Assembly (NCBI GenBank): GCA_020437585.1
Contig: JAGQWG010000001.1
Span: 216,577 to 280,576, forward strand
Direction of reading: 5' to 3'
Length of the DNA: 64,000 bases
Source: Ignavibacteriota bacterium
GTDB taxonomy: Bacteria > Bacteroidota > Ignavibacteria > Tepidaquicellales > Tepidaquicellaceae
Part shown: one piece after another, positions 1 through 44,578 of the stretch
Layout: each line of letters starts with the position of its first letter
How positions within the stretch are numbered: position 1 is the stretch's first letter
Translations under genes and position numbers: made by a program
The notes under the pieces: model-generated
What the model was told of the DNA's origin: nothing
Database searches by the model: none
What the model saw: only the letters and a program-made list of their open reading frames with translations

Positions 1-577
1 CAATCTCGCCTGATTCTAAATAATTAGTATTAAAAGTCATCGCATCACGGAGTTCATCAATTGCAAAAAATTCGTCTTCGATGTTTGCATCAATAACAAG
101 AACCCTTCCACTTTTAGGAACCTTATTTGTATCCAATGTTTTCTTTATCGCAAGAATATCTTCCCAGGCAAGTGAAGCACCTGCAAAATCGCTTGCGTTT
201 GTAGTTGTTTGAGCTTGCGAAACAACTAGGTTATCAAATTTTTCTTGTAATACTAATGAGGCTGAATTAAGATACTCCCGGATTAATGAACCGGCAGATT
301 CGAATTGAGCAAGAAGTTCATCTGCCAAAGGAACAGCATACCCCACTAACGGAACATTAATAAGACTTGTATCAGCTTTCACTTTCTTTCTGTCGCTATC
401 AACTAACGGTGTCCCGGCAGTCTTAACTATCGGGATAGCGAGATCAGGTACATCAACAGAACTTGCTCCGGGTCTTACCATCGAATCGAATGCTCTATTG
501 GCAAGTTGAAAGATTCCCTGAGACTCAATAAGACGTGTTATTACACTGTCCGCTACAATTGTTTTTGAAAATGCCAT
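1..577 (-). CDS. Phage major capsid protein, N-terminal 192 aa (partial, continues left of window)
   Basis: Reading frame is open from the ATG at 577-575 to position 1. It is absent from the ORF track because there is no stop in the window. My translation: MAFSKTIVADSVITRLIESQGIFQLANRAFDSMVRPGASSVDVPDL...KVPKSGRVLVIDANIEDEFFAIDELRDAMTFN. It lies directly downstream of the scaffold gene, as in the P2 O-N order. The capsid call rests on position and general resemblance only. Confidence 0.55.
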   Translation of the reverse strand, partial: MAFSKTIVADSVITRLIESQGIFQLANRAFDSMVRPGASSVDVPDLAIPIVKTAGTPLVDSDRKKVKADTSLINVPLVGYAVPLADELLAQFESAGSLIREYLNSASLVLQEKFDNLVVSQAQTTTNASDFAGASLAWEDILAIKKTLDTNKVPKSGRVLVIDANIEDEFFAIDELRDAMTFNTNYLESGEI

Positions 578-608
578 AATTTAAATTTTAAAGTTTAGAT
601 TAACAAAA

Positions 609-1571
609 TTAAAAATTGCCAAAATCATTGGATTCTTCTCTTAGTTTTATCAACTCCTCTTCTGTAAGAATCTTTGAATACTTCCCCGGATTGTTTAGTA
701 CATCACTATATGTCAAAGGACTACCGTCGGACTTAGTAAATTTTTGATTATCGTGTCCGGTAAATCCTGTTGACTCTATGCTTCTTGTAAAAAGAGCTTT
801 CGGAGGAAGCTTGTCAATAAATTTCATACATGCGTCTAGATTTTCTTCTGCAAATTCCCTAATCTCACCCTCCTGGGCAGGGACTATTTTCGCTTGGGCA
901 ATCGCCGATTTAAGCAATATATCTGTTGCCTTAGTTTTGTAGATTTTTACTTCATTTTGCAATTGTGTATAAACAGAATGAAGTTTTTTGGCAAGCTTTT
1001 CTTCTGTTATTCCTTGATCTAGCTCAACTCCGACCCCCAATGCAAATTCCAAGATTTTTTCCATTTTATTGTTTTTATTTAAATTGTTACCTGATTTTAT
1101 TTCTTTTCGAGACATTGAATAAAGTATTTTCCCAGCTACCAATTCCGGATTATAATTTCTATCCCTCTCGGTAAATTCAAGTGCAGGAAGCCCTGCTACA
1201 GCAGGACGGTTTGTCAATGCAACAGCAACCAGATAGAGACAATCTTTAAATGGTTCATAATTAAGCTTACCAAGCTCAATCGAACACCGTCTGTACTTTT
1301 TTGAATTAACCAATTTAATTAGGTCATCATCTAAGTGTGAAAAAGATGCGTACAACTTATCTCCGATCACCATTAGAGCTTCGACCCAGCCGTAGGCTTT
1401 TGGTTCTTCCGAAGAAGATGAACTAGGATGGCCTATCCATATAGGCGCTTCATAAACTGCAGGATCATAACTTTGAGCGATTTGCTCCAGTTCCATTGCG
1501 GTTACCGTCCCCTGTGGATATTGTCCCGCAGTAAAAACATGAAAGAATTTTTTGTTGTGGTAGTTTAACAT
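609..1571 (-). CDS. Phage capsid scaffolding protein / prohead protease, P2 GPO family
   Basis: GTVTAMELEQIAQSYDPAVYEAPIWIGH aligns by eye with recalled P2 gpO GRVISAQDIQEMAETFDPRVYGCRINLEH. CLYLVAVALTNRPAVAGLPALEF aligns with KCYLVGLAVTDDPASLGTEYLEF. The C-terminal half is coiled and charged. Confidence 0.75.
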   Translation of the reverse strand: MLNYHNKKFFHVFTAGQYPQGTVTAMELEQIAQSYDPAVYEAPIWIGHPSSSSSEEPKAYGWVEALMVIGDKLYASFSHLDDDLIKLVNSKKYRRCSIELGKLNYEPFKDCLYLVAVALTNRPAVAGLPALEFTERDRNYNPELVAGKILYSMSRKEIKSGNNLNKNNKMEKILEFALGVGVELDQGITEEKLAKKLHSVYTQLQNEVKIYKTKATDILLKSAIAQAKIVPAQEGEIREFAEENLDACMKFIDKLPPKALFTRSIESTGFTGHDNQKFTKSDGSPLTYSDVLNNPGKYSKILTEEELIKLREESNDFGNF

Positions 1572-1577
1572 AGTGAT

Positions 1578-1637
1578 GCAATTTATAATATGAAAATCAT
1601 TTTTCCAAATACTAAAAGGTTAGATACGTATCTATAC
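1578..1637 (-). promoter_or_regulatory. Palindrome-box promoter copy 1, proximal promoter of the scaffold-capsid operon
   Basis: Palindrome TAGATACGTATCTA at 1621-1634. On the minus strand, TTTG at 1609-1606 starts 18 nt after the dyad centre, and TAAATTGC at 1585-1578 follows 20 nt later. The scaffold ATG is at 1571. Part of a 37-bp direct repeat (1601-1637). Confidence 0.55.
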
Positions 1638-1667
1638 TTTTTTTATCTTTTGATTAGAACAAGGCAA

Positions 1668-1727
1668 CCAATTTAATAAAAGAAAAATCAGTTTCCAAAT
1701 ACTAAAAGGTTAGATACGTATCTATAC
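1668..1727 (-). promoter_or_regulatory. Palindrome-box promoter copy 2, distal tandem promoter
   Basis: Palindrome at 1711-1724, minus-strand TTTG at 1699-1696 and TAAATTGG at 1675-1668. Spacings are the same 18 and 20 nt. The 36-bp repeat 1692-1727 is identical to 1602-1637, with a 90-bp period. Confidence 0.5.
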
Positions 1728-1808
1728 ATGATTTTCAAAAATTATTATTATAGCAGTACTAATTTTTAAACTGATCACTAATCCAAGAAAGTAAATTGTG
1801 ATATGAAT

Positions 1809-1873
1809 AAAAAGTATAGATACGTATCTAACCCTTTTCTCTTTGCAATCGAAATTTTCATACTATATATTTG
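1809..1873 (+). promoter_or_regulatory. Palindrome-box promoter copy 3, promoter of the portal-terminase operon
   Basis: Palindrome at 1817-1830, TTTG at 1842-1845 (18 nt after the dyad centre), and TATATTTG at 1866-1873 after a 20-nt spacer. TATATTTG fits the Bacteroidota TAnnTTTG -7 consensus. The first gene's ATG is at 1905. Confidence 0.6.
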
Positions 1874-1904
1874 TATCGGTTTTTAAATCAAATCATACTA
1901 CCGC

Positions 1905-2291
1905 ATGCAAAAAGAAATTAGAGATAAACTTATCTCCCTGCTTGACGAAAGCCTCCCATCTATTACAGGTAAAGTTACTCGCTACCGAGGAGAGTTTGAA
2001 AAAGACTCCCGATGGAATCCGGAATTTCCTGCCTGCTTTGTTTTTCTTAAAGGATTCAACAAAGACATTGAGGGTACATACGGAGAAACACTTAAAAAAG
2101 GTTACTCCTTTCTTATTTATATTGCTGATCGAGATGATTGCGCTTCTCTGGCTGAAGAAATCTACAACACTCTGGATGGACTACAGATCGACATAGATGG
2201 AGATTTTTATAAATTGAACATTCGTTTAGTAAAACTTCTTGGATTTTTATATAGTGTTGATGTCTATACTATTGAATTAACAATAACCTAA
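1905..2291 (+). CDS. Phage protein, Mu gp37-like (DUF1834-like) head/tail joining candidate
   Basis: 128 aa. The pattern GKVTRYRGEF...FPACFVFLKG...FLIYIA...LDG resembles recalled DUF1834 proteins. First gene of the plus-strand phage operon. Confidence 0.45.
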   Translation: MQKEIRDKLISLLDESLPSITGKVTRYRGEFEKDSRWNPEFPACFVFLKGFNKDIEGTYGETLKKGYSFLIYIADRDDCASLAEEIYNTLDGLQIDIDGDFYKLNIRLVKLLGFLYSVDVYTIELTIT

Positions 2292-2317
2292 TTTTATTAA
2301 CCTATAACTACCATAAA

Positions 2318-3754
2318 ATGGAATTAATTAATAAACTTAAGCGGTCCATTTCAGATTCCTTAATAAAATTCGCTGCTGATAAAAAACCTTTATCAATGAA
2401 TCCTGCCATGGATAGTAAAGTTGTACGTCATGGAGGATTTAGAAATGTATTTAGTTTGTACACGGAAGAATTCTCTGGGCTAACGGCATATAATATAAAA
2501 CATTATTTTGAGGCAGCAAGGAAGGGCTTAAATTTTTTTAAAGCTGCACTCTTTGAAGATATTAAAAGAAAGGATATGCAGATCGGAGGTGTCTGTCAAT
2601 CTAGAAAGCTTGGAATAACAGGCAGATATAAACTGAACAGGATCGAAAACTTTGTTCATTGCAATGATGAAGGTATGAAAGCCTTTGTTTTAGAAAATTT
2701 TTCCAAAATAAATTTACCTGCATTCTTTTCTGATGTTGTAGATGCAAGTGTAACAGGAGTAAGTAATTTCGAGATAATATATAGGACAAATGGGAATAGT
2801 ATAACAATTGATAAAATACAGAAAATCCCAAATGAATTGATTGTATATGATGAAGGGGGCGACAGATATCTTTACCTTTCCCCTGAGGAAAGGGACATAT
2901 TTAAATTAAGAAGCTTGACTGCCTCAGCTTATAGTGGCTTCGATGATCGACTTGATATCAGTAAACTATCTCTTATTGAACTACCTGAAGAAAAAGTTCT
3001 TGAAGTTCATGCGCTAGATGGAAATGCGGGTAATGGATTAATGAACGGATGTATAGATGCTCTCATATGGGCTTTCTTTTTCAAAAGTTACCTTATAAAA
3101 GATCTGGCAACATTCCTGGAGCTTTTCGCTATCCCCGCGATTATTGGGAAGTACGACCCCTTAATGAGCCGGGAGGACAGGGTTAAGTTCGACACAGCAA
3201 TCCGTGATTTTGGCAATCATTTTAGGATGGTAATGAGTAAAGATGCGGAAGTAGAATTTGTAACTGATACAAATAAAGGAAGTTCCAATGAAATATATCA
3301 CCGCACTCTTGAATACTGGGATAAAAAAATAGCCATCCGGATCCTGGGGCAAAACCTCTCAACTGAAGTTGACTCTGGAAGTTACGCAGCAGCGCAGGCA
3401 CATAGTATTATTAGAAATGATTTCCTTATCTCTGATATGATTCTATGTGAATCAGCAATGAATACCCTGATAAAAAAGGTAATAGACTTGAACTTTAGCA
3501 ACCCTAAAGTTTACCCGAAGTTCGAATTTCCTGAAACTAAATCCTTGGAAGACAAAAAGATGCTAAGCGATATATACAGTTCCCTCAGCAGTTCAGGCTA
3601 TCACCTGGACAAAGAAGAAGTATCTAAAGAACTTGGCATAACAACAACTCCTCAATCTGAGATAATTAGTAAATTAAGAGACCTTACTAAGGATCACTCG
3701 AGAAACGGAGAAATGGAGAAATTCTTGACTGATACTCTTGAAGAAACTATCTAA
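2318..3754 (+). CDS. Phage portal protein candidate (Mu gp29 / DUF935-like)
   Basis: 478 aa, a portal-typical size. It sits between head-completion-type genes and upstream of the terminase. Family assignment is from recall and not verified. Confidence 0.55.
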   Translation: MELINKLKRSISDSLIKFAADKKPLSMNPAMDSKVVRHGGFRNVFSLYTEEFSGLTAYNIKHYFEAARKGLNFFKAALFEDIKRKDMQIGGVCQSRKLGITGRYKLNRIENFVHCNDEGMKAFVLENFSKINLPAFFSDVVDASVTGVSNFEIIYRTNGNSITIDKIQKIPNELIVYDEGGDRYLYLSPEERDIFKLRSLTASAYSGFDDRLDISKLSLIELPEEKVLEVHALDGNAGNGLMNGCIDALIWAFFFKSYLIKDLATFLELFAIPAIIGKYDPLMSREDRVKFDTAIRDFGNHFRMVMSKDAEVEFVTDTNKGSSNEIYHRTLEYWDKKIAIRILGQNLSTEVDSGSYAAAQAHSIIRNDFLISDMILCESAMNTLIKKVIDLNFSNPKVYPKFEFPETKSLEDKKMLSDIYSSLSSSGYHLDKEEVSKELGITTTPQSEIISKLRDLTKDHSRNGEMEKFLTDTLEETI

Positions 3755-3778
3755 TTGACAATCTAAACCGATAAACAA

Positions 3779-4198
3779 ATGGCATACTCTACACAAGAAG
3801 ACATACTAAAACGTATTAGAAAGCGCGAGCTTGACAAACTGATTGAAAGTCTGGACGGCGAACCTGATTCCGCCGACATCCTGACTGAGGCGATCTCGAC
3901 CGCCGATAGTATAATCGATGGATATCTAAAAAGCGTCGTAAAGGCACTCCCTCTGACGGAGGTTCCCGAGGCAGTCATTGACTGTTCAGCAAACATTGCA
4001 ATCTACATTCTTCACTCTCGCATACAATATCACGATGTACCTGAATTTTGGAAGGAAAGATACGATAACTGCATCTCATATCTGAAGGATGTTTCAAAAG
4101 GTCTGGCCAATATAGAGACAACTATAAACGAGGATGACCAGCAGGATAGCTTAAAAGCCTACTCAAATGAGAATGTTTTTAATAGGAATCTGTACTGA
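3779..4198 (+). CDS. Phage head-tail connector-like protein (Mu gp36 / DUF1320-like)
   Basis: 139 aa. YSTQEDILKRI...AISTADSIIDGYL...LPL...IAIYILHSR...ERYDNCISYLKDVSKG matches the recalled DUF1320 pattern. Its stop overlaps the terminase ATG (TGATG at 4196-4200). Confidence 0.6.
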   Translation: MAYSTQEDILKRIRKRELDKLIESLDGEPDSADILTEAISTADSIIDGYLKSVVKALPLTEVPEAVIDCSANIAIYILHSRIQYHDVPEFWKERYDNCISYLKDVSKGLANIETTINEDDQQDSLKAYSNENVFNRNLY

Positions 4199-5535
4199 TG
4201 GAAATAACAAGTCTTAATGATCTTCTTCCAAATTATAAATCTCTGCCTGCTTTAGAAAAGTGGCACATGTCAGATCACCTTGAAAAAGGGATAAAAGGTG
4301 GAGTTAGAAGCGGGAAGACATATGCACTAATGGCTGAGGCGTTATACCTTGCATACTGTAACCGCCCGTTTTTTCATTTATCTCTCTCTCCATCATTTGA
4401 TAATGCATGTGATACTGTTGTCGTTGTTTTGGAAGAACTCTGTGTTCGAAATAAATTGGAATACAGATGGATAAAATCAAACCGAACATTTCAATTCTGG
4501 CTTGAGAATGATAAAGATAACCACGCAAATATCCTCATTTACGGCTCGGAAATGTCGTTTAAAGGCATTACTGCCGCGTCCGGCGATATAAACGAACCCT
4601 TCTCAATTCCAAAAAAGAATATCCTGATTTGGTGGGAAAGAATATCACATCCGGAAGCCGCACGGCTCGTTCGCCTCTGGGGAGGAACCGCCGAACCCGA
4701 CAAGATGCAGTGGGGATGGGAGTATTGGGAAAAGGAGGAAATCAAAAATGATGATTCTTATATAACCACCATCACCACATATGACAATATCCATCTGAGT
4801 GATGACTACAAAAGACGGCTGGAGGATAAATACGATAGTCGTATGCGTGAGGTTTATATGATGGGTAAGAACATAAACCTATCAGCTGACCGCGCTTACT
4901 ACGCTTTTGATACTGAAAGATCTGTTGTGAAACAAAGCCAGGTGCAAACAACCAAAATTATCATCGGCTTCGATTTCAATGTGGATCCTATGTGCGCAAT
5001 AGAGTTAATCATAGACGAAGATGTTCGAACTCAGGTCGATGAGTATGTAATTCATTCCTCAAATACAGGTGAACTCTGTGAGTACATTATTATGCGACTT
5101 TTACAAAAATACAATCGGGAAGATATTACATTGATCATCACAGGTGATGCGTCAGGCAGGGCTTTGAAGACCGCTAGCTTCGGTAGAACGGATTATATGA
5201 TCATAAAAGAAGCATTCGAGAGAGCAGGATTTAGCTTAGATTTATATATCCCGAACAGTAATCCTCCCGTCCGAGATAGGATAAACTTTACTAATAAACT
5301 CTTTGAAACGGGTAAATATCTGATAACAGAAAATTGTAAGCAGTCAATCAAAGACCGGGGTCTCGTAACATGGAAACAGGGAACCGACGGCTTCATTATA
5401 GATAAATCGCGTCGGGACATATCACATTTATCGGATGCAGGAGATTACGCACTTTGGGCTAGCAAAAAAGTTGAAAATAGTGAACAGGATTACTTTACAA
5501 TTCAGCAAATGGGAAAAGCAAGGGAGTACCTCTAA
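4198..5535 (+). CDS. Phage terminase large subunit
   Basis: 445 aa. N-terminal Walker A GGVRSGKT. C-terminal nuclease-like half with acidic motifs (IIIGFDFNVDP, LIITGDASG). Translationally coupled to the upstream phage gene. Confidence 0.8.
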   Translation: MEITSLNDLLPNYKSLPALEKWHMSDHLEKGIKGGVRSGKTYALMAEALYLAYCNRPFFHLSLSPSFDNACDTVVVVLEELCVRNKLEYRWIKSNRTFQFWLENDKDNHANILIYGSEMSFKGITAASGDINEPFSIPKKNILIWWERISHPEAARLVRLWGGTAEPDKMQWGWEYWEKEEIKNDDSYITTITTYDNIHLSDDYKRRLEDKYDSRMREVYMMGKNINLSADRAYYAFDTERSVVKQSQVQTTKIIIGFDFNVDPMCAIELIIDEDVRTQVDEYVIHSSNTGELCEYIIMRLLQKYNREDITLIITGDASGRALKTASFGRTDYMIIKEAFERAGFSLDLYIPNSNPPVRDRINFTNKLFETGKYLITENCKQSIKDRGLVTWKQGTDGFIIDKSRRDISHLSDAGDYALWASKKVENSEQDYFTIQQMGKAREYL

Positions 5536-27157: not shown

Positions 27158-28249
27158 ATGCTAAAAATTTCTATCTCCCTAATTCTCTTTATTATTGCAT
27201 TTTTAAGCATAAATTCATATGCGCAATACAGCTCACCTGAGAGTGTGACTTACGATTCCGTAACCAAACGATACTTTATTTCAAATACCAGCAGCGGTAA
27301 AGTCCTTCAGAGAAGCCAGGCCGGTGTTGTAACGGACTTTGTTACTCCCGGTGGCACGCTTCGCGGTCTCACTATTTACAATGGGGTCTTATACGCAGCC
27401 ACAAGTAACTCTGTTAAAGGTTACGATCTGAATACGGGTACACCAGGCATGAATCTCTCGATGGGTACCTCACTCAATGGCATAGATGCTGATACAAACG
27501 GGTATCTTTACGTATCTAACTTTACCTCAGCCGGGACAATTTACAAAATCCGTATTTCCGATAATCAATTCTGGGCTTTTGCAACTGTACCTAGAACGCC
27601 TAATGGTGTTTATGCAGATTACAAAAGGAACCGTCTCCTGGTAGTTGCATGGGGTGGCAGCGCAACTGTAATAAGCGTAAACCTTACCGATTCTACCGAT
27701 GTAACAACTCTGGTAACAACTCCTTATAGTAATCTTGACGGTATCTCGCTGGATAGAAATGATCACGTCTATTGTTCGTCTTATAGTAGTAATTTGGTCT
27801 TCCGATACGACATTAACTTTGCCTCTTCCCCTGCAGTAGTTGTCAACACAGGTCTTTCCAGCCCTGCCGACATATATGTAAATCGTATCACCGATACACT
27901 CGCTGTACCAAATGCAGGTAATAATACTGTAAGCTTTATTCCATTAACAGTACCAACAACTATACAACATACAAACAATATTGCTGATGGATACTTCCTT
28001 AAGCAAAATTACCCGAATCCATTCAACCCCTCGACAAATATCTCTTTTGAGATAAAAGAAAAAGGATTGGTAACTTTGAAGGTTTATGATATACTTGGCA
28101 ATGAGATGGCATCACTCGTAAATGAGGAGCTAAACTCAGGAAGCTATAATGTAACATTCGACGCTTCCAATTTTACAAGCGGGGTTTATTTTTACGAATT
28201 GAAATCAGGAAGTTATAGAGATACTAAAAAGATGTTGTTAGTAAAATAA
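27158..28249 (+). CDS. Secreted beta-propeller-like protein with T9SS C-terminal sorting domain
   Basis: Signal peptide. C-terminus: QNYPNPFNPSTNISFEI...VTLKVYDILGNE...SGVYFYELKSG...KKMLLVK. Confidence 0.75.
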   Translation: MLKISISLILFIIAFLSINSYAQYSSPESVTYDSVTKRYFISNTSSGKVLQRSQAGVVTDFVTPGGTLRGLTIYNGVLYAATSNSVKGYDLNTGTPGMNLSMGTSLNGIDADTNGYLYVSNFTSAGTIYKIRISDNQFWAFATVPRTPNGVYADYKRNRLLVVAWGGSATVISVNLTDSTDVTTLVTTPYSNLDGISLDRNDHVYCSSYSSNLVFRYDINFASSPAVVVNTGLSSPADIYVNRITDTLAVPNAGNNTVSFIPLTVPTTIQHTNNIADGYFLKQNYPNPFNPSTNISFEIKEKGLVTLKVYDILGNEMASLVNEELNSGSYNVTFDASNFTSGVYFYELKSGSYRDTKKMLLVK

Positions 28250-36858: not shown

Positions 36859-37788
36859 TTGGGCAATCACTCAATTAATAGTCCTTTCAGATATGCTGGT
36901 GGTAAGTTTTACGCACGGAAACTAATACTATCCCTTATTCCAGAACATTCTGAATACATCGAACCTTTTGCAGGAGGTGGAAGTATTTTCTTTGCCAAGG
37001 GAAAGGTGGACTTTAATCAATTAAATGATATTGACGAAGAACTTTATAATACTTTTTTAACAATTCGTGATTTCCCTGATGAGTTAATATGTTTCCTTAC
37101 AAAAAGACCTGAGAGTGAAAGCTTAATTCTTGAATCATTAAGTCCAGAAGTGGCATTTGGGGATCCTCTTCCCGCTAAAAAGGAGCTTCATAAATTTTTC
37201 AAACACGATTTTAATCCTTCAACCGATATTGAAAGGGCTGGACGATGGTATTATTTGAATCGTACTTCATATAGTGGTATTATGAATATTCAGAACATGT
37301 ATTGGGGTTATGGAGATAAATTTTCAATGCAGCCTAAAAATTGGGCTTCTAACATTAGAAGAGCAAGTGAAAAACTTCAGAATACACAGCTTACTTCTCT
37401 GGATTTTGAAGAAGTAATTGATAATGCACCCTATGATTCTTTAATATTTGTTGATCCACCATATTTTAATGCCGATCAGGATAAATTCTATACCCATTAT
37501 TTTAATAAGGATGATCACTTCAGGCTTGAAGAATGTCTCAGAAGAAATTCTCATCGCTTAAAAATTTTCCTTACTTATGACAATTCATCTGAAATCAAGG
37601 CTTTGTACCATTGGATGAATGAAATACATGATAAGGAATGGAATTACTGTTTAAACAGAACTGATGATCAAAGAAATAAAACCAAACGTAAGGGGGAAAG
37701 AAATAAAGGACAAGAATTATTTATTTTGAATTACAATTCAGAAGAATGCCTTGTTAATAGAAGAGTTCAATTACGTCTAGAGGCTTGA
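36859..37788 (+). CDS. Dam-family (alpha class) N6-adenine DNA methyltransferase of the R-M cassette
   Basis: FRYAGGKFYARK, motif I EPFAGGGSIFF and motif IV FVDPPY. TTG start. Confidence 0.85.
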   Translation: MGNHSINSPFRYAGGKFYARKLILSLIPEHSEYIEPFAGGGSIFFAKGKVDFNQLNDIDEELYNTFLTIRDFPDELICFLTKRPESESLILESLSPEVAFGDPLPAKKELHKFFKHDFNPSTDIERAGRWYYLNRTSYSGIMNIQNMYWGYGDKFSMQPKNWASNIRRASEKLQNTQLTSLDFEEVIDNAPYDSLIFVDPPYFNADQDKFYTHYFNKDDHFRLEECLRRNSHRLKIFLTYDNSSEIKALYHWMNEIHDKEWNYCLNRTDDQRNKTKRKGERNKGQELFILNYNSEECLVNRRVQLRLEA

Positions 37789-38522
37789 TTTGATTTCCTT
37801 TTTTTCTCTACAACCTGTAACAATTTCTCTTCAAGTAATTCAGTTGAATTCCAATTTTCATCATTCAATAACTTTACTCTAGGTGTTCTAGGAATAAAAC
37901 CCCTAATAGAAATTGATTCTGGAATGCAAAATCTCCAATCCGTTTCCGTGCTAATAATAAGATCGTGGTCTGTTTGAACATTGTAGTGCCTACAGAGAAA
38001 TTCTCTGGTTCCAATATCGTGAATAATTTCTAATCCTTCGCTGATAGTATTTCCTTGATATATAGAATTAGTTGGATTGGTAAATATTAAATCAAAGTCA
38101 TTTTCAGAATATTTGTCATTGGTAGTCCCGGCAAGTCTAATGTTACTTCTGGATTTATGACACTTAACAGAAAAATGAGGCTCTTTCAAAATCCTAGAGT
38201 TTTTTCCTTGTGTAAAACTTCCGCGTACTGCACTTTTACTTTCTACTTTTAATATTATCCCTGTTCTCCTATGAGTAATTGAAATATCCTCATCTATGGT
38301 ACCGGGTTGAGCATTAAGATTCAACTTTTCAATACTCCAAATGCTTCGTGAAAGGTTTCTAATCAACATTGAATATAGATTATATTCCATTGCTTTACCC
38401 CTCACCATAGGAGTAACTTTTTGATCCTCTAAAATATGAAATAGGAACTCTATTGGTATGCCAAATTTGCTACAATAATCTACCATTTTCTTACCTAATA
38501 ATTCTAAATCTTTATTGTCCAT
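37767..38522 (-). CDS. Type II restriction endonuclease candidate (PD-(D/E)XK-like)
   Basis: 251 aa. IDEDISITHRRTGIILKVESKS gives a D...E-x-K arrangement. Translationally coupled to the upstream C gene with an 11-nt overlap. Convergent with the methyltransferase, overlapping its 3' end by 22 nt. Confidence 0.6.
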   Translation of the reverse strand: MDNKDLELLGKKMVDYCSKFGIPIEFLFHILEDQKVTPMVRGKAMEYNLYSMLIRNLSRSIWSIEKLNLNAQPGTIDEDISITHRRTGIILKVESKSAVRGSFTQGKNSRILKEPHFSVKCHKSRSNIRLAGTTNDKYSENDFDLIFTNPTNSIYQGNTISEGLEIIHDIGTREFLCRHYNVQTDHDLIISTETDWRFCIPESISIRGFIPRTPRVKLLNDENWNSTELLEEKLLQVVEKKRKSNQASRRN

Positions 38523-39305: not shown

Positions 39306-39869
39306 TTACTGGTACGTAAACTCTATAGAATCCCCCTCTTTCAACCCGTACTTATCTGCAAATCCTGCAACAGTCTCGACTACATACATTGCCGGCTTTT
39401 CTGAGGGTAGATCCTTTTCTGAGAATGGTGTGGTGTTTTTATGTATTTTAACGATCTTCTTATCTTTACCGATGAACATTATATCCAGAGGCAGTATCGT
39501 ATTCTTCATCCAGAAGGCTTGCTGATCCTCTGTCGGAAAAACAAACAGCATTCCTCTCGCCTCATCCATGGTCTTTCTATACATTAGTCCTTGCTGTCTC
39601 TCCGGACCGTTGTCTGCGATCTCGATGTCTATTTTCTTTACTTCCTTACCGTCTTTCGTAAAAGTCAGCTCACCCTCTTTCTTAAATTGTGGCTCCTGTA
39701 CTTTATCTACTTCTTTTTGGATCGTGGGCGGTACAACAATTTCTTCTTTCTTTATCGCATACTCATAGATCAAATAGCCCGCAATAACCAAAATTACGAC
39801 TACTAGTATATTTCTCGGAAGGTTTGAACTTTCCTGCTTTTGAGGTGCCTTTTTAGTCTGCTTGCTCAT
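39306..39869 (-). CDS. DUF192 domain protein, membrane anchored
   Basis: ERQQGLMYRKTMDEARGMLFVF...MKNTILPLDIMFI...YVVE is the DUF192 signature. Confidence 0.8.
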   Translation of the reverse strand: MSKQTKKAPQKQESSNLPRNILVVVILVIAGYLIYEYAIKKEEIVVPPTIQKEVDKVQEPQFKKEGELTFTKDGKEVKKIDIEIADNGPERQQGLMYRKTMDEARGMLFVFPTEDQQAFWMKNTILPLDIMFIGKDKKIVKIHKNTTPFSEKDLPSEKPAMYVVETVAGFADKYGLKEGDSIEFTYQ

Positions 39870-40640
39870 TTATTTGTTTACCTTGTTTAAAAAGTTGCTT
39901 ACACCGTTTTTGCATTCCTCTGTCATCCTTGTTATTGCATTCAGGTCCACAGCATATTCCAGCGCCGCTTCAAAACTCATCGAGGAAATATTCCCGAACA
40001 TCTCTTTTGTCAATTTTAACGAACTTAACGGCAATTTGTTCAATCCTGCGCAGAGCTTATCCGTAAAGCTCTCCAGCTCATCCGGTTTAGTTACGTAGTT
40101 CGCAAAGCCCATTCTGTAAGCTTCATCTCCCATTATAAAACGGGAAGTTAAAAGAAGGTCTTTCGCGTGCGCTTCGGTCACTCTCTTCATCAGGAATATC
40201 ATCACTATCGCAGGGATAAATCCTATTTTTACCTCCGTATACCCGAACTGCGCTGTCTCCGATGCCACCACTATATCACATGCTGATGCTATCCCGCATC
40301 CACCTGCCAGTGCATAGCCCTCTACCATCGCAATTGTTGGTTTTCTGTTATTGTAAATTGCAAGGAGCAGATTTTTAAATTTTCTCGAATCGTCCTTGTT
40401 TTGCAATATGTCATACTCAGATATTTTTTGCAGATAATCGAGAAAGAGCCCCGAACAGAAATTACCTCCCGCCCCGGTTAGTATGATAGATTTAGTCTCT
40501 TCGTCGTTTGAATACTTGTTCATAGTATCTGTCAGCTCTTCTATCATCAGCTCGTCCAGTGAATTCCTTTTCTCCGGGCGGTTCAAAATTATCTTTTTTG
40601 TCTGGCCTTTCTCTTCTACTAAAATTCTTTGATAATCCAT
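39870..40640 (-). CDS. Enoyl-CoA hydratase/isomerase family protein
   Basis: LNRPEKRNSL, GAGGNFCSG and GYALAGGCGIASACDIVVAS..AQFGYTEVKIG. Confidence 0.85.
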   Translation of the reverse strand: MDYQRILVEEKGQTKKIILNRPEKRNSLDELMIEELTDTMNKYSNDEETKSIILTGAGGNFCSGLFLDYLQKISEYDILQNKDDSRKFKNLLLAIYNNRKPTIAMVEGYALAGGCGIASACDIVVASETAQFGYTEVKIGFIPAIVMIFLMKRVTEAHAKDLLLTSRFIMGDEAYRMGFANYVTKPDELESFTDKLCAGLNKLPLSSLKLTKEMFGNISSMSFEAALEYAVDLNAITRMTEECKNGVSNFLNKVNK

Positions 40641-40644
40641 TTTA

Positions 40645-41454
40645 TTATAATTTTGGCAGATAATTAATTAACAATTCATTGTTGTTTGAAATAATTGCCG
40701 AATTGATAAGGAAATACTTCCGTAGATTCTCTTCCGTAATTATGTCATGTGTTTTGCCCGCGAATACCAGCTTCCCTTTGTCTAGCAGCAAGGTCTTATG
40801 AGTATATTTTAGAGCGAGGCTAAGGTCATGCATCACAACCATTATCGTTAGTCCTTTTTCCGAATTTAACTTATGCAATATCGAAAATATCTCATGCTGG
40901 TAATTTACGTCAAGGTATGTCAGCGGTTCGTCAATGATCAATACTTTTTCCTTAAGATCTTCTTTTAAATTCAATTGCACCAATGCAAGAGTAATTAGAA
41001 CTTTTTGCCTCTCACCTCCCGAAAGCTCGGAAATTTCCCTGTCCCTAAAATCCATAATACCTGCCACATCCAGCGCTTCACTTACAACCGATTCATCCTC
41101 CTCATTATACCTAAATTCCGAAAAATTCTTGTAAGAGTATCTTCCCAATAACAGAAAATCTTTTACGGTTATCTTATCCGTAAGCATTATTCCGGACTGA
41201 GGGAGGTAGCATAAGCCCCTTGAAAGAGTCTTCCTTTCATATTCTGCTATATTCTTATCTTTAAAAATGATCTTACCACTTGTATTAGTGTGGATCCCCG
41301 AAAGCAGTTTTACCAAAGTTGATTTCCCGGAGCCGTTCCTGCCGATGATCGAAACGAATTCACCTCCACCAATAGAAAAGGAAACATCCTTAAGAGCGAA
41401 CCTTTCATTGCCGTAGGAAAAGCTAATATCTTCTGCTCTAAGTATCTCACTCAT
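40645..41454 (-). CDS. ABC transporter ATP-binding protein (FecE/BtuD-like)
   Basis: Walker A GRNGSGKST, signature LSGGERQ and Walker B LIIDEP. No permease or binding protein is adjacent. Confidence 0.8.
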   Translation of the reverse strand: MSEILRAEDISFSYGNERFALKDVSFSIGGGEFVSIIGRNGSGKSTLVKLLSGIHTNTSGKIIFKDKNIAEYERKTLSRGLCYLPQSGIMLTDKITVKDFLLLGRYSYKNFSEFRYNEEDESVVSEALDVAGIMDFRDREISELSGGERQKVLITLALVQLNLKEDLKEKVLIIDEPLTYLDVNYQHEIFSILHKLNSEKGLTIMVVMHDLSLALKYTHKTLLLDKGKLVFAGKTHDIITEENLRKYFLINSAIISNNNELLINYLPKL

Positions 41455-42767
41455 TAGTAGAATACCTCGGATTTAGTTTCGCACAGCACAGGTTTTATAC
41501 CGTCTGTTTCGAGAAGGGTTACTTTTTTTATCATGTTTTCATCGGCAAATTTGGGATCGGCTTTTACCCTTATATAATTCGTCGTAAGTCCTTCCCTGTA
41601 GCCGTCTTTCACAGATTCAAATAATACATCCTGCTCCGTCCCAACAAACCTGCTGTAAAAGTCAAATCTCTTTTTATCGGACAATCTCCTTAGTATATGA
41701 CTTCGCTTTTTCCTCACTTCCATGTCCACGCTTCCCGGCATCACAGCCGCATCGGTATCGCGTCTCTCTGAGTAAGAAAATACGTGCAGGTAACTAATAG
41801 GAAGTTCGTTAAGGAAATTATACGTGTTTTGAAACCTTTCTTCAGTCTCACCCGGAAATCCAACAATAACGTCTACACCAATACCAACATCCTTTATCTC
41901 ATCATTCAGTCTGTGTACGAGGTCACGGTAGTATTCCTTCTTGTACCGGCGTCTCATGCCCTGCAGCGTCTCCGCGTCACCGCTCTGAAGCGGTATATGG
42001 AAGTGGTTGCAGAACTTATCCGACGACTTTGCAAAGTCTATTATCTGCTGGTTCACAAGATTAGGCTCGATCGAACTTATTCTAATTCTCTTTATATCCA
42101 GTTTGTCCAACTCATACAGCACGTCCACCAGCCTGTACAATCTTCCATTTTGATATTTATAGTCACCTGTATTAACTCCTGTTAGAACAATCTCCTTATA
42201 CCCTGAATCAATCACCCTCTTCGCGTTGTCTATTACTTCGTTTATCGGCTGGCTTCTTGACTTGCCTCTTGCAAGCGGTATCGTGCAAAACGAGCATTTG
42301 TAATTACATCCATCCTGTATCTTCAAAAACGCGCGAGTGCGCGAATCAATGTCCGCAGAAAAGGCAAAATGGAAATCATTTACTTCCTCGATAGGGGAAC
42401 GGTAAATACATGACGGCTCGCCTTTTTCGAAGCTATCTACATAGTCGAATACTTTGAACTTTTCCTTTGCGCCTAGCACAACATCCACGCCCTCGATCGA
42501 AGCAATCTCGCCCGGTTGTAACTGCGCATAGCATCCTGTAACGATCACATATGTTTCCGGATTATTGCGGAGTATGCTTCGGACGATCTGCCTGCATTCC
42601 TTATCGGCGTTATTCGTCACGGAACAGGTACTGAGGACAAATATATCAGATTCATCACCATATTCCCGTATCTGGAAGCCCCGCGTTTCGAACTCCTTTG
42701 CCAATGTGGAGGTCTCGCTGTAGTTCAGCTTGCATCCTAATGTATGTAATGACACACTTTTAGCCAT
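41454..42767 (-). CDS. mtaB: tRNA methylthiotransferase, MtaB-like radical SAM enzyme
   Basis: N-terminal LHTLGCKLNYSET, radical SAM CNYKCSFCTIP, and a C-terminal TRAM-like domain. Confidence 0.8.
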   Translation of the reverse strand: MAKSVSLHTLGCKLNYSETSTLAKEFETRGFQIREYGDESDIFVLSTCSVTNNADKECRQIVRSILRNNPETYVIVTGCYAQLQPGEIASIEGVDVVLGAKEKFKVFDYVDSFEKGEPSCIYRSPIEEVNDFHFAFSADIDSRTRAFLKIQDGCNYKCSFCTIPLARGKSRSQPINEVIDNAKRVIDSGYKEIVLTGVNTGDYKYQNGRLYRLVDVLYELDKLDIKRIRISSIEPNLVNQQIIDFAKSSDKFCNHFHIPLQSGDAETLQGMRRRYKKEYYRDLVHRLNDEIKDVGIGVDVIVGFPGETEERFQNTYNFLNELPISYLHVFSYSERRDTDAAVMPGSVDMEVRKKRSHILRRLSDKKRFDFYSRFVGTEQDVLFESVKDGYREGLTTNYIRVKADPKFADENMIKKVTLLETDGIKPVLCETKSEVFY

Positions 42768-42840
42768 AGGAGGAAATTTACTAAAAAAGTAATGGAATTT
42801 TAAGGCTTAAATATAGCATTCGGATTGCTATCATAATGAT

Positions 42841-43257
42841 GGAGCCGGATAAGCGGTTCTTCCGGCTGAGCCTCTGACTTTCGCTTCATTCCTTTCCCCG
42901 GGTGAGGATCGGGAGGTGAGGGAAGCTACACGCCCAAGCCCGCCTACATTTAACTTATTTACTCTTCCATAAGCGGTTTCCCGCCGGTGGGTTGATTTAA
43001 AGGACGGTAAGATTCCTCACTTTCTGTACCAATTTACGCATGTTCCAAGTATGGGTTGATTTAAAGTTCGGCGGCAACACTTTTAGTTGTTGGTGACGGT
43101 TCACTTTGTTCACCTAAAACACCAACAACGGCGTTACGGTGTGTTGTCCCATTTTACACATGTTCTAATCCCGTCAAGGACGGAACGCGGATTGTACTTT
43201 CTAAGAAGAAAGCATACCGCTTGTAGGTTGATTAGGTCGGGACGAATCCCGCCTTAA
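42841..43257 (-). ncRNA. Candidate structured ncRNA of unknown family, or a ~490-nt structured 5' leader of mtaB
   Basis: 570-bp gap with no ORF of 60 aa or more on any frame, and visibly more GC-rich than its flanks. Perfect 10-bp stem GTTGTTGGTG (43086-43095) with CACCAACAAC (43120-43129). 7-bp stem AGCCGGA/TCCGGCT (42843-42867). 5' UUCG hairpin. Repeated modules GGGTTGATTTAAAG x2 (plus one degenerate copy) and TTTACRCATGTTC x2. The strand is chosen because a conserved promoter points into it. Confidence 0.5.
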
Positions 43258-43262
43258 ATAAG

Positions 43263-43327
43263 GAAATATAGGGTGAGAAAAGAATGAAAGCAAAGAGAAA
43301 AGGGTTAGATACGTATATATACTTTTT
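43263..43327 (-). promoter_or_regulatory. Palindrome-box promoter copy 4 (orphan), pointing into the structured region
   Basis: Minus strand reads AAAAAGTATATATACGTATCTAACCCTTTTCTCTTTGC, matching 1809-1846 at 37 of 38 positions. TTTG (43294-43291) lies 18 nt after the dyad centre. TATATTTC (43270-43263) follows a 20-nt spacer. Confidence 0.6.
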
Positions 43328-43339
43328 TTTCTACTAACT

Positions 43340-43765
43340 CTATTGCTCTAGTTTAGCTTCCAAATATCCTTTCAGGCTTTTTTCAAGAATACTTGTCCAA
43401 CCAGCTTCGAAGTTCTTCCTGTCAAATTCAGGTTTATCCGGGAATGTCTCCAATCCGGAATGGGTAAGAACCAGTTTTGTCGAGTCACCTTCAGGGAACA
43501 GCTCCCATGAGACATACGATATTCCGGGTTCGCCGTCATATCTCCAGCTGTATACAAGTTTCTTCCCCGGTATCACTTCTATCACTTCACACAGATGAAG
43601 GAATAGTTTATCTTTTTCTCCGGCTGTAAATTCGAACCTGAAACCTTCCTCAGCAATAAACTCTTCCAGGTCAAAATACCATTCCTTCATTTCCTCCTTA
43701 CCGGTTATTGCGCTCCATACCTCCGACACAGGAGCATTTAATGTTATTTCTTTTATCAGTTGCAT
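43340..43765 (-). CDS. SRPBCC superfamily protein (AHSA1/START-like)
   Basis: 141 aa. The pattern VWSAIT..EEMKEWYF...F.F......KLVYSW...T.L.LTHSG is typical of this family. Confidence 0.7.
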   Translation of the reverse strand: MQLIKEITLNAPVSEVWSAITGKEEMKEWYFDLEEFIAEEGFRFEFTAGEKDKLFLHLCEVIEVIPGKKLVYSWRYDGEPGISYVSWELFPEGDSTKLVLTHSGLETFPDKPEFDRKNFEAGWTSILEKSLKGYLEAKLEQ

Positions 43766-44172
43766 TAAGCCTCCGCAACTTCCTTTAGTTTAGCAAGTTT
43801 CTCATCCCAGCCTTTGTTGTGTCCTTCTGACATGCTTTCACCCAGTGGTCCTATATTTTCCCATCCAGTGTGTGTCAGCGTCAGATCCGTTTCTCCATTT
43901 CCTTCCAACTCAATGGATACTTCACTGTCACCTTCAAATTCCGGTAAACGCCACGTGTAAACAAGTTTCTTGTTCTCGACAAGTTCTTTAATTGTGCAAT
44001 TAATTGGAAAAGGTCCCTCGCCCATATCCCCGGTGAAGGCAAAAGACTTTCCCACCTCTGAGACAAAATCATTCGGCATCAGCCATTGGGCAAGCTGCTC
44101 AGTATTGATCAAAGCCTGCCATACTTTCGATACCGGTGCATTTATGTGAACTTTCTTTTCGATCTTTTTCAT
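43765..44172 (-). CDS. SRPBCC superfamily protein (AHSA1/START-like), paralog
   Basis: 135 aa. VWQALINTEQLAQWLMPNDF...KLVYTW...LTLTHTGW. Abuts its neighbours by 1-4 nt. Confidence 0.7.
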   Translation of the reverse strand: MKKIEKKVHINAPVSKVWQALINTEQLAQWLMPNDFVSEVGKSFAFTGDMGEGPFPINCTIKELVENKKLVYTWRLPEFEGDSEVSIELEGNGETDLTLTHTGWENIGPLGESMSEGHNKGWDEKLAKLKEVAEA

Positions 44173-44498
44173 TTCTCTTTTTCTATATAATTTTTTAGTG
44201 AAATTAGTTTGTCATCCCAGAACCTATCGAAGTACTGAAGCCACTTGTTCACTTCCTTCAAAGGTTTCGCATTTACACGGTAATACCTTTCCCGTCCGTC
44301 ACGCCGCGGTACCACCAATTTTGATTCCTGAAGTATCCTCAGGTGTTTTGATACCGCCGGACGGCTAAATTTAAAGTGTCCGGCTATATCATTTACCCGC
44401 ATCTCTTTTTCGGTTAGCATAGTCAATATTTGTCTCCTGCTCGAATCTGCCAGCGCATTGAATATAATATCTATATTTCTATGAGAATTTTTAATCAT
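44169..44498 (-). CDS. ArsR/SmtB family transcriptional regulator
   Basis: IFNALADSSRRQILTML....MRVNDIAGHFKFSRPAVSKHLRILQESKLV. Start is placed at the ATG at 44498. The upstream part of the track ORF is taken up by operator-like dyads. Confidence 0.8.
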   Translation of the reverse strand: MIKNSHRNIDIIFNALADSSRRQILTMLTEKEMRVNDIAGHFKFSRPAVSKHLRILQESKLVVPRRDGRERYYRVNAKPLKEVNKWLQYFDRFWDDKLISLKNYIEKEK

Positions 44499-44502
44499 AA
44501 TT

Positions 44503-44545
44503 GGTAACTTTTCGGTTACACAAAGATACGTAACTTTTTGGTTAC
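44503..44545 (-). promoter_or_regulatory. Two GTAAC-N6-GTTAC dyads, candidate ArsR operator
   Basis: GGTAACTTTTCGGTTAC (44503-44519) and GTAACTTTTTGGTTAC (44530-44545) lie directly upstream of the ArsR ATG. Confidence 0.5.
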
Positions 44546-44578
44546 TTGTCAAGTAGAAAATTATGCTATTAGTGGGAT

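Follow-up and report, generated by a model that had tools for sequence, protein, structure and literature searches.

Promoter D and the box-promoter family

The 64,000-nucleotide (nt) stretch of Ignavibacteriota DNA analysed here (contig JAGQWG010000001.1; hereafter the window) carries part of a phage-like head-tail gene cluster at its left end and, at 43.3 kb, an orphan promoter-like element, promoter D, which reads toward the radical-SAM gene mtaB. A 20-nt box, GTATAKATACGTATCTAACC, is found in exactly four full copies in the window, against 0.00 expected by chance (100 shuffles). Three of them belong to promoters A, B and C of the head genes, and the fourth is that of promoter D, as the initial annotation had counted it. 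Positions 43327-43290 of the minus strand read AAAAAGTATATATACGTATCTAACCCTTTTCTCTTTGC, and the portal-side copy at 1809-1846 of the plus strand reads AAAAAGTATAGATACGTATCTAACCCTTTTCTCTTTGC. Direct reading of both strands upholds the near-identity of D and C described earlier, with 37 of the 38 positions shared and a single mismatch, G to T, in the left half of the palindrome. With four copies and this degree of identity, a chance origin of the box copies is excluded.

Promoters D and C are alike in geometry as well. The end of the box is followed by the 8 nt CTTTTCTC, TTTG, a 20-nt spacer and a -7 element, and the two spacers are essentially unrelated, with an ungapped match of 10/20 as counted by hand. 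Box orientation, the 8-nt gap to TTTG and the 32-nt distance from box to -7 element are exactly those of the three head-gene copies, which places D in the same promoter family, as had been proposed; its layout is ungapped-identical to that of 12 other family members. The orphan variant of the box, TATATACGTATCTA (box sequence for comparison, TAGATACGTATCTA), matches the cluster box at 19/20 positions and in the correct orientation. The predicted transcription start lies a few nt downstream of the -7 element, at about 43255-43260 on the minus strand. The neighbours of D are also as first described, with the ArsR gene and two SRPBCC/AHSA1 genes upstream and mtaB downstream. No phage gene was found within 35 kb. 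Downstream of D there is no phage structural operon; a 495-nt non-coding stretch is followed by mtaB. Coordinates of all features are collected in Table 1.

Table 1. Promoters, cluster genes and mtaB-locus features; positions are those of the window, except in the last row.
Feature	Position	Strand	Remarks
Orphan promoter D	43263..43330	-	A-run, box, 8-nt gap, TTTG, 20-nt spacer, TATATTTC
Promoter D box, GTATATATACGTATCTAACC	43322-43303	-	
Promoter D TTTG	43294-43291	-	
Promoter D -7 element, TATATTTC	43270-43263	-	
Full box copies	1618-1637 (-), 1708-1727 (-), 1814-1833 (+), 43303-43322 (-)		
Promoter A	1578..1637	-	predicted to drive protease/scaffold-capsid-tail operon; box 1618-1637
Promoter B	1668..1727	-	tandem second copy, 90 nt upstream of A
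Promoter C	1814..1873	+	predicted to drive orf128-portal-adaptor-terminase operon; box 1814-1833, TTTG 1842-1845, TATATTTG 1866-1873
Cluster, right-hand part in window	1..5535		continues left into tail genes (L005)
Capsid gene, 5' part	1-577	-	
GPO/Mu-type protease-scaffold	609-1571	-	
orf128	1905-2291	+	
Mu-type portal	2318-3754	+	PF06074
gp36-like adaptor	3779-4198	+	PF07030
Large terminase	4198-5535	+	
ArsR and two SRPBCC/AHSA1 genes	43340-44552	-	upstream side of D; end 13 nt upstream of A-run
Leader downstream of D	42813..43262	-	about 450 nt, lineage-specific, untranslated, hairpin-rich
mtaB proximal region	42768..42812	-	conserved in all relatives
mtaB operon	39306..42767	-	in path of promoter D; MtaB homologs
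mtaB (radical-SAM)	41454-42767	-	start 495 nt beyond D -7 element
ABC ATPase	40645-41454	-	mtaB operon
Enoyl-CoA hydratase	39870-40640	-	mtaB operon
DUF192 gene	39306-39869	-	mtaB operon
Stand-alone zinc-ribbon gene	L021 12052-12240, L018 9098-9307, L023 11092-11301	-	between last tail gene and rpsT

Aligned without gaps, 13 promoters that represent about six related Ignavibacteria lineages (the window and the relatives' loci L008, L009, L010, L012, L017, L018 and L020) define the family. Relatives were gathered through exact-pattern scans, through contigs encoding window proteins, and through homologs of the protease, of MtaB or of a tail protein. The taxa in which the MtaB homologs occur mark the organism as Ignavibacteria-like. 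The shared layout comprises the box with its ACC end toward the promoter, 8 nt, TTTG, 20 nt and TAnnTT(T)G. In 12 of the 13, the -7 element lies 32 nt from the box, and in the L020 protease-side promoter 33 nt; TTTG lies 8 nt past the box in 10. A fourteenth promoter, on the protease side of L019 and truncated at a contig end, also has 33 nt as judged by eye.

The core of the box is a perfect 14-bp palindrome with half-sites TAGATAC and GTATCTA, whose centre falls about 50-55 bp before the predicted start. All 20 positions of the box are kept in lineages whose protease identity is 58-76% and whose flanking DNA is about 72-81% identical. In the L020 variant, TATATACGTATATA, the half-sites read TATATAC and GTATATA, a G-to-T change in one being mirrored by C to A in the other. 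Such paired changes in both half-sites would be the signature expected of a dimer's operator with altered specificity. A dyad-symmetric site at a fixed upstream position is a property of this promoter family, the symmetric change in L020 included.

Bacteroidota housekeeping promoters consist of a -33 TTTG and a -7 TAnnTTTG placed 19-21 nt apart, as far as the B. fragilis work is described in PMC7366714. By that description promoter C is a perfect match, with 20 nt between its two elements, and promoter D has TTTG, 20 nt and TATATTTC, which fits the -7 motif at 7/8 positions with C instead of G as the last base. A -7-like element of this kind is conserved throughout the box family. The family core thus appears to be a Bacteroidota-type -33/-7 promoter, an assignment based on conservation within the family; the consensus comes from Bacteroidota, and the promoter type is not established for Ignavibacteria-like hosts.

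Promoter B is identical to promoter A from the box through TTTGGAAA. The -7-like element of A, TAAATTGC, ends 6 nt before the protease ATG at 1571, which implies a leaderless or nearly leaderless messenger RNA (window 1571-1585). A fifth box match in the window, with three mismatches (27502-27521), is intragenic and has no downstream promoter elements. A further orphan with a perfect box was observed in L010 (1097-1116, plus strand), where about 500 nt without an open reading frame (ORF) separate the box from a transaldolase gene and TTTG is missing; it suggests that more host loci in the clade carry the box.

The initial annotation had recognised that a common dispersed repeat would undo its proposal. 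Scans of the window, of adjoining DNA and of the GTDB, JGI and IMG/VR collections do not point that way. No further copy is present in the 9.4 kb that adjoin the window on the left. The GTDB species representatives hold one exact match, in a gammaproteobacterial metagenome-assembled genome without promoter context, which is a chance hit. The JGI metagenomes yielded three boxes in promoter context, all from one sample (L008, L009, L010), together with chance matches inside coding sequence, and in IMG/VR the box was matched by chance only, again inside coding sequence. A degenerate box pattern likewise gave chance matches only among viral contigs, and no close relatives were found among viral contigs through the portal protein or through two leader/element motifs. 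The box sequence was not found in the literature. A dispersed repeat of the repetitive extragenic palindrome or miniature inverted-repeat transposable element type was rejected on these data, given four copies, all in the 64-kb window, among the 74 kb of this genome scanned and, in public collections, only relatives and chance matches. The box was also rejected as an intrinsic terminator of the SRPBCC operon: its folds (-2.3 and -3.3 kcal/mol) are no better than those of shuffles, and a terminator scan at the box found no stable GC-rich hairpin with a U-run.

Conservation of an mtaB orphan in a relative

A second orphan of the family lies upstream of mtaB in L012/L013, a relative whose MtaB protein is 89% identical to that of the window. 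Its box, GGATACATACGCATATGACC (L012 2888-2907), is located 347 nt upstream of mtaB and oriented toward it, and is followed by an 8-nt gap, ATTT and, exactly 32 nt past the box, a perfect TATCTTTG. This is the only match with at most two mismatches outside clusters in the 301 kb examined. The L012 box differs from the window box at five positions and from the box of the L020 cluster, which comes from the same sample as L012 and has similar coverage, at only two (18/20). At the diagnostic box positions 2 and 15 the L012 orphan carries the states of L020, and the window orphan those of the window cluster.

The mtaB genes of the window and L012 are about 76% identical in DNA, a figure obtained by conversion of a two-sequence column score that stands in for synonymous divergence, and local alignment of the two leaders between orphan and mtaB is no better than that of shuffles. 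Neutral sites between the window and L012 thus appear close to saturation. Neutral sequence has been scrambled and box and spacing have been retained, which implies selection. In an unselected ancestral relic, box, orientation and exact spacing would not have survived, nor would such a relic follow its own cluster's operator. The preference of the initial annotation for selection on promoter function over recent duplication gains support from this pair of orphans.

Could D nevertheless be a non-functional fragment of a portal promoter and leader that came to lie upstream of mtaB and has stayed similar through gene conversion or youth? D belongs to the portal (C) subtype, even in the unconstrained 8-nt gap CTTTTCTC, its leader is faintly like that of C (p ~0.01), and in L008 a portal-type promoter has been orphaned by deletions inside a decaying cluster. 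The two mtaB orphans, moreover, carry the only imperfect palindromes of the family, and L015 has no orphan at all. However, a relic that predates the divergence of the window and L012 lineages would be expected to be as scrambled as the leaders, whereas box, orientation and 32-nt spacing are kept and each orphan tracks the box variant of its own cluster. It would take an unlikely coincidence for two recent insertions to land independently at one and the same place upstream of mtaB, and gene conversion of a tract of 20-38 bp, 41 kb away and without selection, would be hard to sustain. We consider such a relic unlikely.

On balance, we lean toward D being a maintained, working and co-regulated promoter that reads toward mtaB. 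One regulator would probably control both the cluster and the mtaB locus. A dimeric protein acting in trans is predicted to bind the palindrome of half-sites TAGATAC and GTATCTA, and the asymmetric flanks (GTA... and ...ACC) would fix the orientation of the box. With the palindrome 8 nt from the -33 TTTG and 32 nt from the -7 TAnnTTTG, and its centre about 50-55 bp upstream of the start, the bound protein would most likely activate the housekeeping RNA polymerase at all four promoters; since the core elements are good matches, repression is also conceivable. The same protein would control the divergent protease-capsid-tail and portal-terminase operons. Through D, transcription across a 0.5-kb non-conserved leader into the mtaB operon would come under the same control, a regulated distal promoter being added to the conserved proximal promoter of mtaB. 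We infer all three steps, namely binding of the box by the regulator, activation, and transcripts that reach mtaB.

Several points weigh against this reading. The promoter activity of D is deduced from conservation, and the assignment of L012 and L020 to one organism from shared sample and coverage. The box scan of this genome spans 74 kb. In L015, whose MtaB identity is 90%, the intergenic stretch before mtaB measures only 110 nt and lacks an orphan, so that the mtaB orphan is not universal. The D and L012 orphans are the sole family members with imperfect palindromes (one change in D, two in L012), and in each of them one core element is weakened (TATATTTC in D, ATTT for TTTG in L012); these features would suit weaker sites or a relaxation of constraint. 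In the intergenic DNA of the window, the Bacteroidota -7 motif shows no clear enrichment, with 10 observed against 6.3 expected. Finally, the leader downstream of D is not conserved and has no recognisable product.

That leader was analysed as a possible product in itself. It contains short internal repeats (TTTAAATCAACCCA twice, 64 nt apart, and GAACATGYGTAAA twice). Its folding score (z = -2.95, with 0/100 shuffles as good) and these repeats might point to a stand-alone non-coding RNA, a hairpin-rich molecule of about 450 nt possibly acting as a regulatory RNA linked to the cluster, with mtaB as a mere neighbour served by its own conserved proximal promoter; the box promoters of L008 and L010 also precede about 440-500 nt without ORFs. 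We judge this improbable, more so than the relic. Neither conserved sequence nor detectable conserved structure links the window and L012 leaders, and that of L012 shows no unusual structure (z = -1.19). Rfam has no match for the leader, and its 3' end is not set by a terminator, none having been found between orphan and mtaB in either the window or L012.

Other candidates for the leader were rejected. A conserved structured RNA does not accord with the L012 score and the unalignable leaders. A known RNA was rejected in that Rfam returned nothing at gathering thresholds and a permissive scan gave noise; neither tRNA nor tmRNA was found in the leader. ORFs on the transcribed strand reach at most 38 aa and are not conserved, which speaks against a conserved small ORF, and a 10-codon ORF in the L012 leader is destroyed in L013. 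Decayed phage sequence was considered as well: one of the internal repeats of the leader shows a weak likeness to the leader of promoter C (16/18 over TTTAAATCAA..CATACT), which is marginal, the similarity of the L012 and L020 leaders is not significant (96/500 shuffles), and blastn of the leader against 50,697 phage records gave nothing. From the lack of an ORF above 38 aa, of an Rfam match, tRNA or terminator, the absence of unusual structure in the L012 leader and the marginal likeness to C, it seems probable that selection has not acted on the leader as a product. Read-through from D into the mtaB operon would be the simplest reading.

The gene order of the mtaB operon is the same in relatives, and the upstream neighbours of mtaB differ in every lineage examined. 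In the relatives whose MtaB is 89-90% identical, conservation is confined to the final 45-55 nt ahead of the mtaB start codon. In the window this corresponds to the proximal region of Table 1, the only intergenic part that is conserved in L012, L013, L014, L015 and L016, and it is probably the promoter and leader of mtaB itself.

Three further observations were made at this locus. Assemblies of other samples from this study break off within the leader: L004 stops at 43184, and L016 begins near 42958, perhaps through low coverage or strain variation in the part that bears the repeats. GC-rich hairpin units sharing CCTCCCGAT occur upstream of mtaB in two lineages (window 42870-42935, minus strand, and L014 1-110) and look like short intergenic repeats of the REP kind. 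The interval that separates the DUF192 gene from the LemA gene in the window encodes a Dam-like N6-adenine methyltransferase (36859-37788, plus strand) and a 251-aa ORF without domain match (37767-38522, minus strand), and the relative L012 has only a 130-aa ORF in that interval; 36859-38522 may be an inserted restriction-modification or orphan methylase module.

A role at the level of DNA only, as a decoy or titration site or as a recombination or inversion site paired with 1814-1833, with no promoter function at 43.3 kb, is in our view very improbable. The box is largely palindromic, C (plus strand) and D (minus strand) are mutually inverted, and several assemblies break at or near boxes (L006, L017, L019), as such a site might lead one to expect. 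Yet both mtaB orphans have preserved, along with the box, the -33 and -7 elements and the spacing of these, and a bare site needs neither. Contig breaks are expected from exact repeats of 20-36 nt in short-k assemblies, and all 24 contigs that cover the locus show a single arrangement. An invertible promoter was also rejected, the cluster promoters lying outside the inverted boxes, not between them, and reading outward.

The head-tail cluster and a candidate regulator

The cluster, which measures about 17 kb, continues to the left of the window with capsid, connector and tail genes. A sister genome, L021/L022 (GCA_020437435.1), has 96% nucleotide identity in the head genes and the same three boxes. 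There, ruvB, orf153 and a NUDIX gene are followed by terminase, adaptor, portal and orf128 on one side of the divergence and, on the other, by protease, capsid and further genes up to the tape measure and four distal tail genes; a small zinc-ribbon gene, rpsT, ridA, parB and parA come next. The far left end of the cluster in the window genome is placed by synteny with L021/L022, presumably at the same point. In the full L021/L022 cluster, every gene that could be identified has a phage structural role, many small ORFs lack a match, and no integrase, repressor or replication gene was detected.

The cluster occupies the same fixed locus in the window, L021/L022, L018 and L023. TerL identity is 76%, compared with 91-94% for RuvB, 82-83% for NUDIX and 65-83% for other neighbours, so the cluster proteins seem to have diverged about as much as their host neighbours. 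Between L005 and L021, the ratio of non-synonymous to synonymous substitution rates (dN/dS) is 0.02-0.30 for 10 of 12 cluster genes; one of the remaining two has no non-synonymous change, and the small g82 has a dN/dS of 0.70. The cluster has been degraded independently in two lineages. In L018, portal, terminase and orf128 are frameshifted, the region from capsid to tail is deleted and the protease is truncated; in L023, only the terminase and three distal tail genes remain, and no boxes. The nearest sequenced phage portals are about 26% identical.

The initial annotation spoke of a phage module. This holds for the structural genes, which are of phage type, and not for an ordinary inducible prophage, given a structural-only, vertically inherited cluster at a fixed locus with no regulator visible inside. 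Judging from the gene comparisons, the cluster is an old, vertically inherited head-tail element that has been selected in some lineages and lost in others, and it is closer in character to a gene transfer agent (GTA) than to an inducible prophage.

A structured element of about 265 nt was observed in two relatives (L008 1545-1270 and L018 3850-3570, both minus strand), whose copies are 79% identical. Its fold comprises a 13-bp long-range stem together with hairpins that show five compensatory pairs, and no Rfam match was found for it. In L018 it lies between portal and adaptor, and in L008 a portal-type box promoter immediately precedes it. The window has no such element, and portal and adaptor are 25 nt apart there.

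Since no regulator gene is recognisable inside the cluster, a trans-acting factor is needed. A candidate is the stand-alone zinc-ribbon gene past the last tail gene, on the opposite strand to it; synteny puts this gene outside the window, some 11 kb to the left. It is present in all three lineages with a readable left edge of the cluster, two of them decayed. Its persistence would explain why the boxes are perfect in L018 and in L008-L010 despite decayed structural genes. The protein is 62-69 aa long, with a Cys4 zinc ribbon of the NrdR type and no ATP-cone. It scores 40-43 bits for Zn_ribbon_NrdR (Pfam cutoff 27.2) and 13 bits for Ogr_Delta, below the cutoff of 26.3, and it matches PHROG 10675, a phage family of unknown function (E = 5e-8). 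On these scores the protein is not placed in the Ogr/Delta family, and no Mor/C homolog was found. Its size, its metal-binding pattern and its position after the tail genes liken it to Ogr of phage P2, and by this analogy it might be the protein that binds the box.

Comparison with known systems

In phage P2 and its satellite P4, several late operons share a dyad element, TGT-N12-ACA, at a fixed position about 55 bp upstream of the start, and their late promoters are activated by the zinc-finger proteins Ogr and Delta. The activator is a Cys4 zinc protein of about 70 aa encoded beyond the tail genes, and it works in trans, reaching even promoters on an unlinked element. As in P2, the protease/scaffold of the cluster is of the gpO type, and a small Cys4 zinc-ribbon gene is found just past the last tail gene. 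Unlike in P2, the box is unrelated to TGT-N12-ACA, the core promoter appears to be of the Bacteroidota -33/-7 type, and the zinc protein, NrdR-type and sub-threshold for Ogr_Delta, is a candidate for the role only. The additional target is a host housekeeping operon and not a satellite phage.

Phage Mu offers a second parallel. Its late promoters Plys, PI, PP and Pmom, four in number and one of them far from the rest, have a common dyad-symmetric site for the activator protein C, which binds closer to the start and overlaps the -35 region. The head genes of the cluster are Mu-type (portal PF06074, gp36 PF07030, Mu-like protease), and here too four promoters share a dyad-symmetric site, with one of them distant. 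Unlike in Mu, the presumed activator site lies farther upstream, no Mor/C homolog is seen, and the cluster has neither a transposase nor an early region; even the nearest phage portals are only distantly related.

GTA regulons include that of RcGTA, with its direct activator GafA, and that of the Caulobacter GTA (PMC6363796, PMC11150451, PMC9632790). At about 15-17 kb, with head and tail genes only and no integrase, repressor or replication genes, the cluster shows all three genomic characteristics of a GTA, namely structural genes only, vertical inheritance at a fixed locus, and purifying selection. Its regulator would likewise lie outside the structural operons, with sites for the same regulator at other chromosomal loci. 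Unlike in GTA systems, the extra locus has no phage-derived gene and the cluster has decayed in two lineages, with no known particles, DNA packaging or lysis function. No GTA is known from the literature on Ignavibacteria, a phylum-level group; no paper was found in the full-text literature that combines 'gene transfer agent' with 'Ignavibacteria'. It is a tentative and rather doubtful idea that the cluster is a true Ignavibacteria GTA, switched on by the NrdR-type zinc-ribbon protein in an Ogr-like role, with a regulon extended by selection to the mtaB operon. Were it so, particle production would be coupled to tRNA modification (mtaB, ms2t6A37) and hence to the decoding of ANN codons.

If promoter D is active, a host housekeeping operon would have been wired into the circuit of a domesticated phage-like element, a clean natural case, and the operator would have co-evolved at the cluster and at mtaB across species. 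As a compact, vertically inherited cluster in Ignavibacteria, the element is a candidate GTA with a defined operator and promoter and a small, testable zinc-ribbon regulator; these parts could be synthesised and tested without culturing the organism. The site of promoter D might work like a P2- or Mu-type late promoter with a shared operator, and the cluster, taken as a unit, resembles a GTA regulon to which one more chromosomal target belongs (PMC6363796, PMC11150451).

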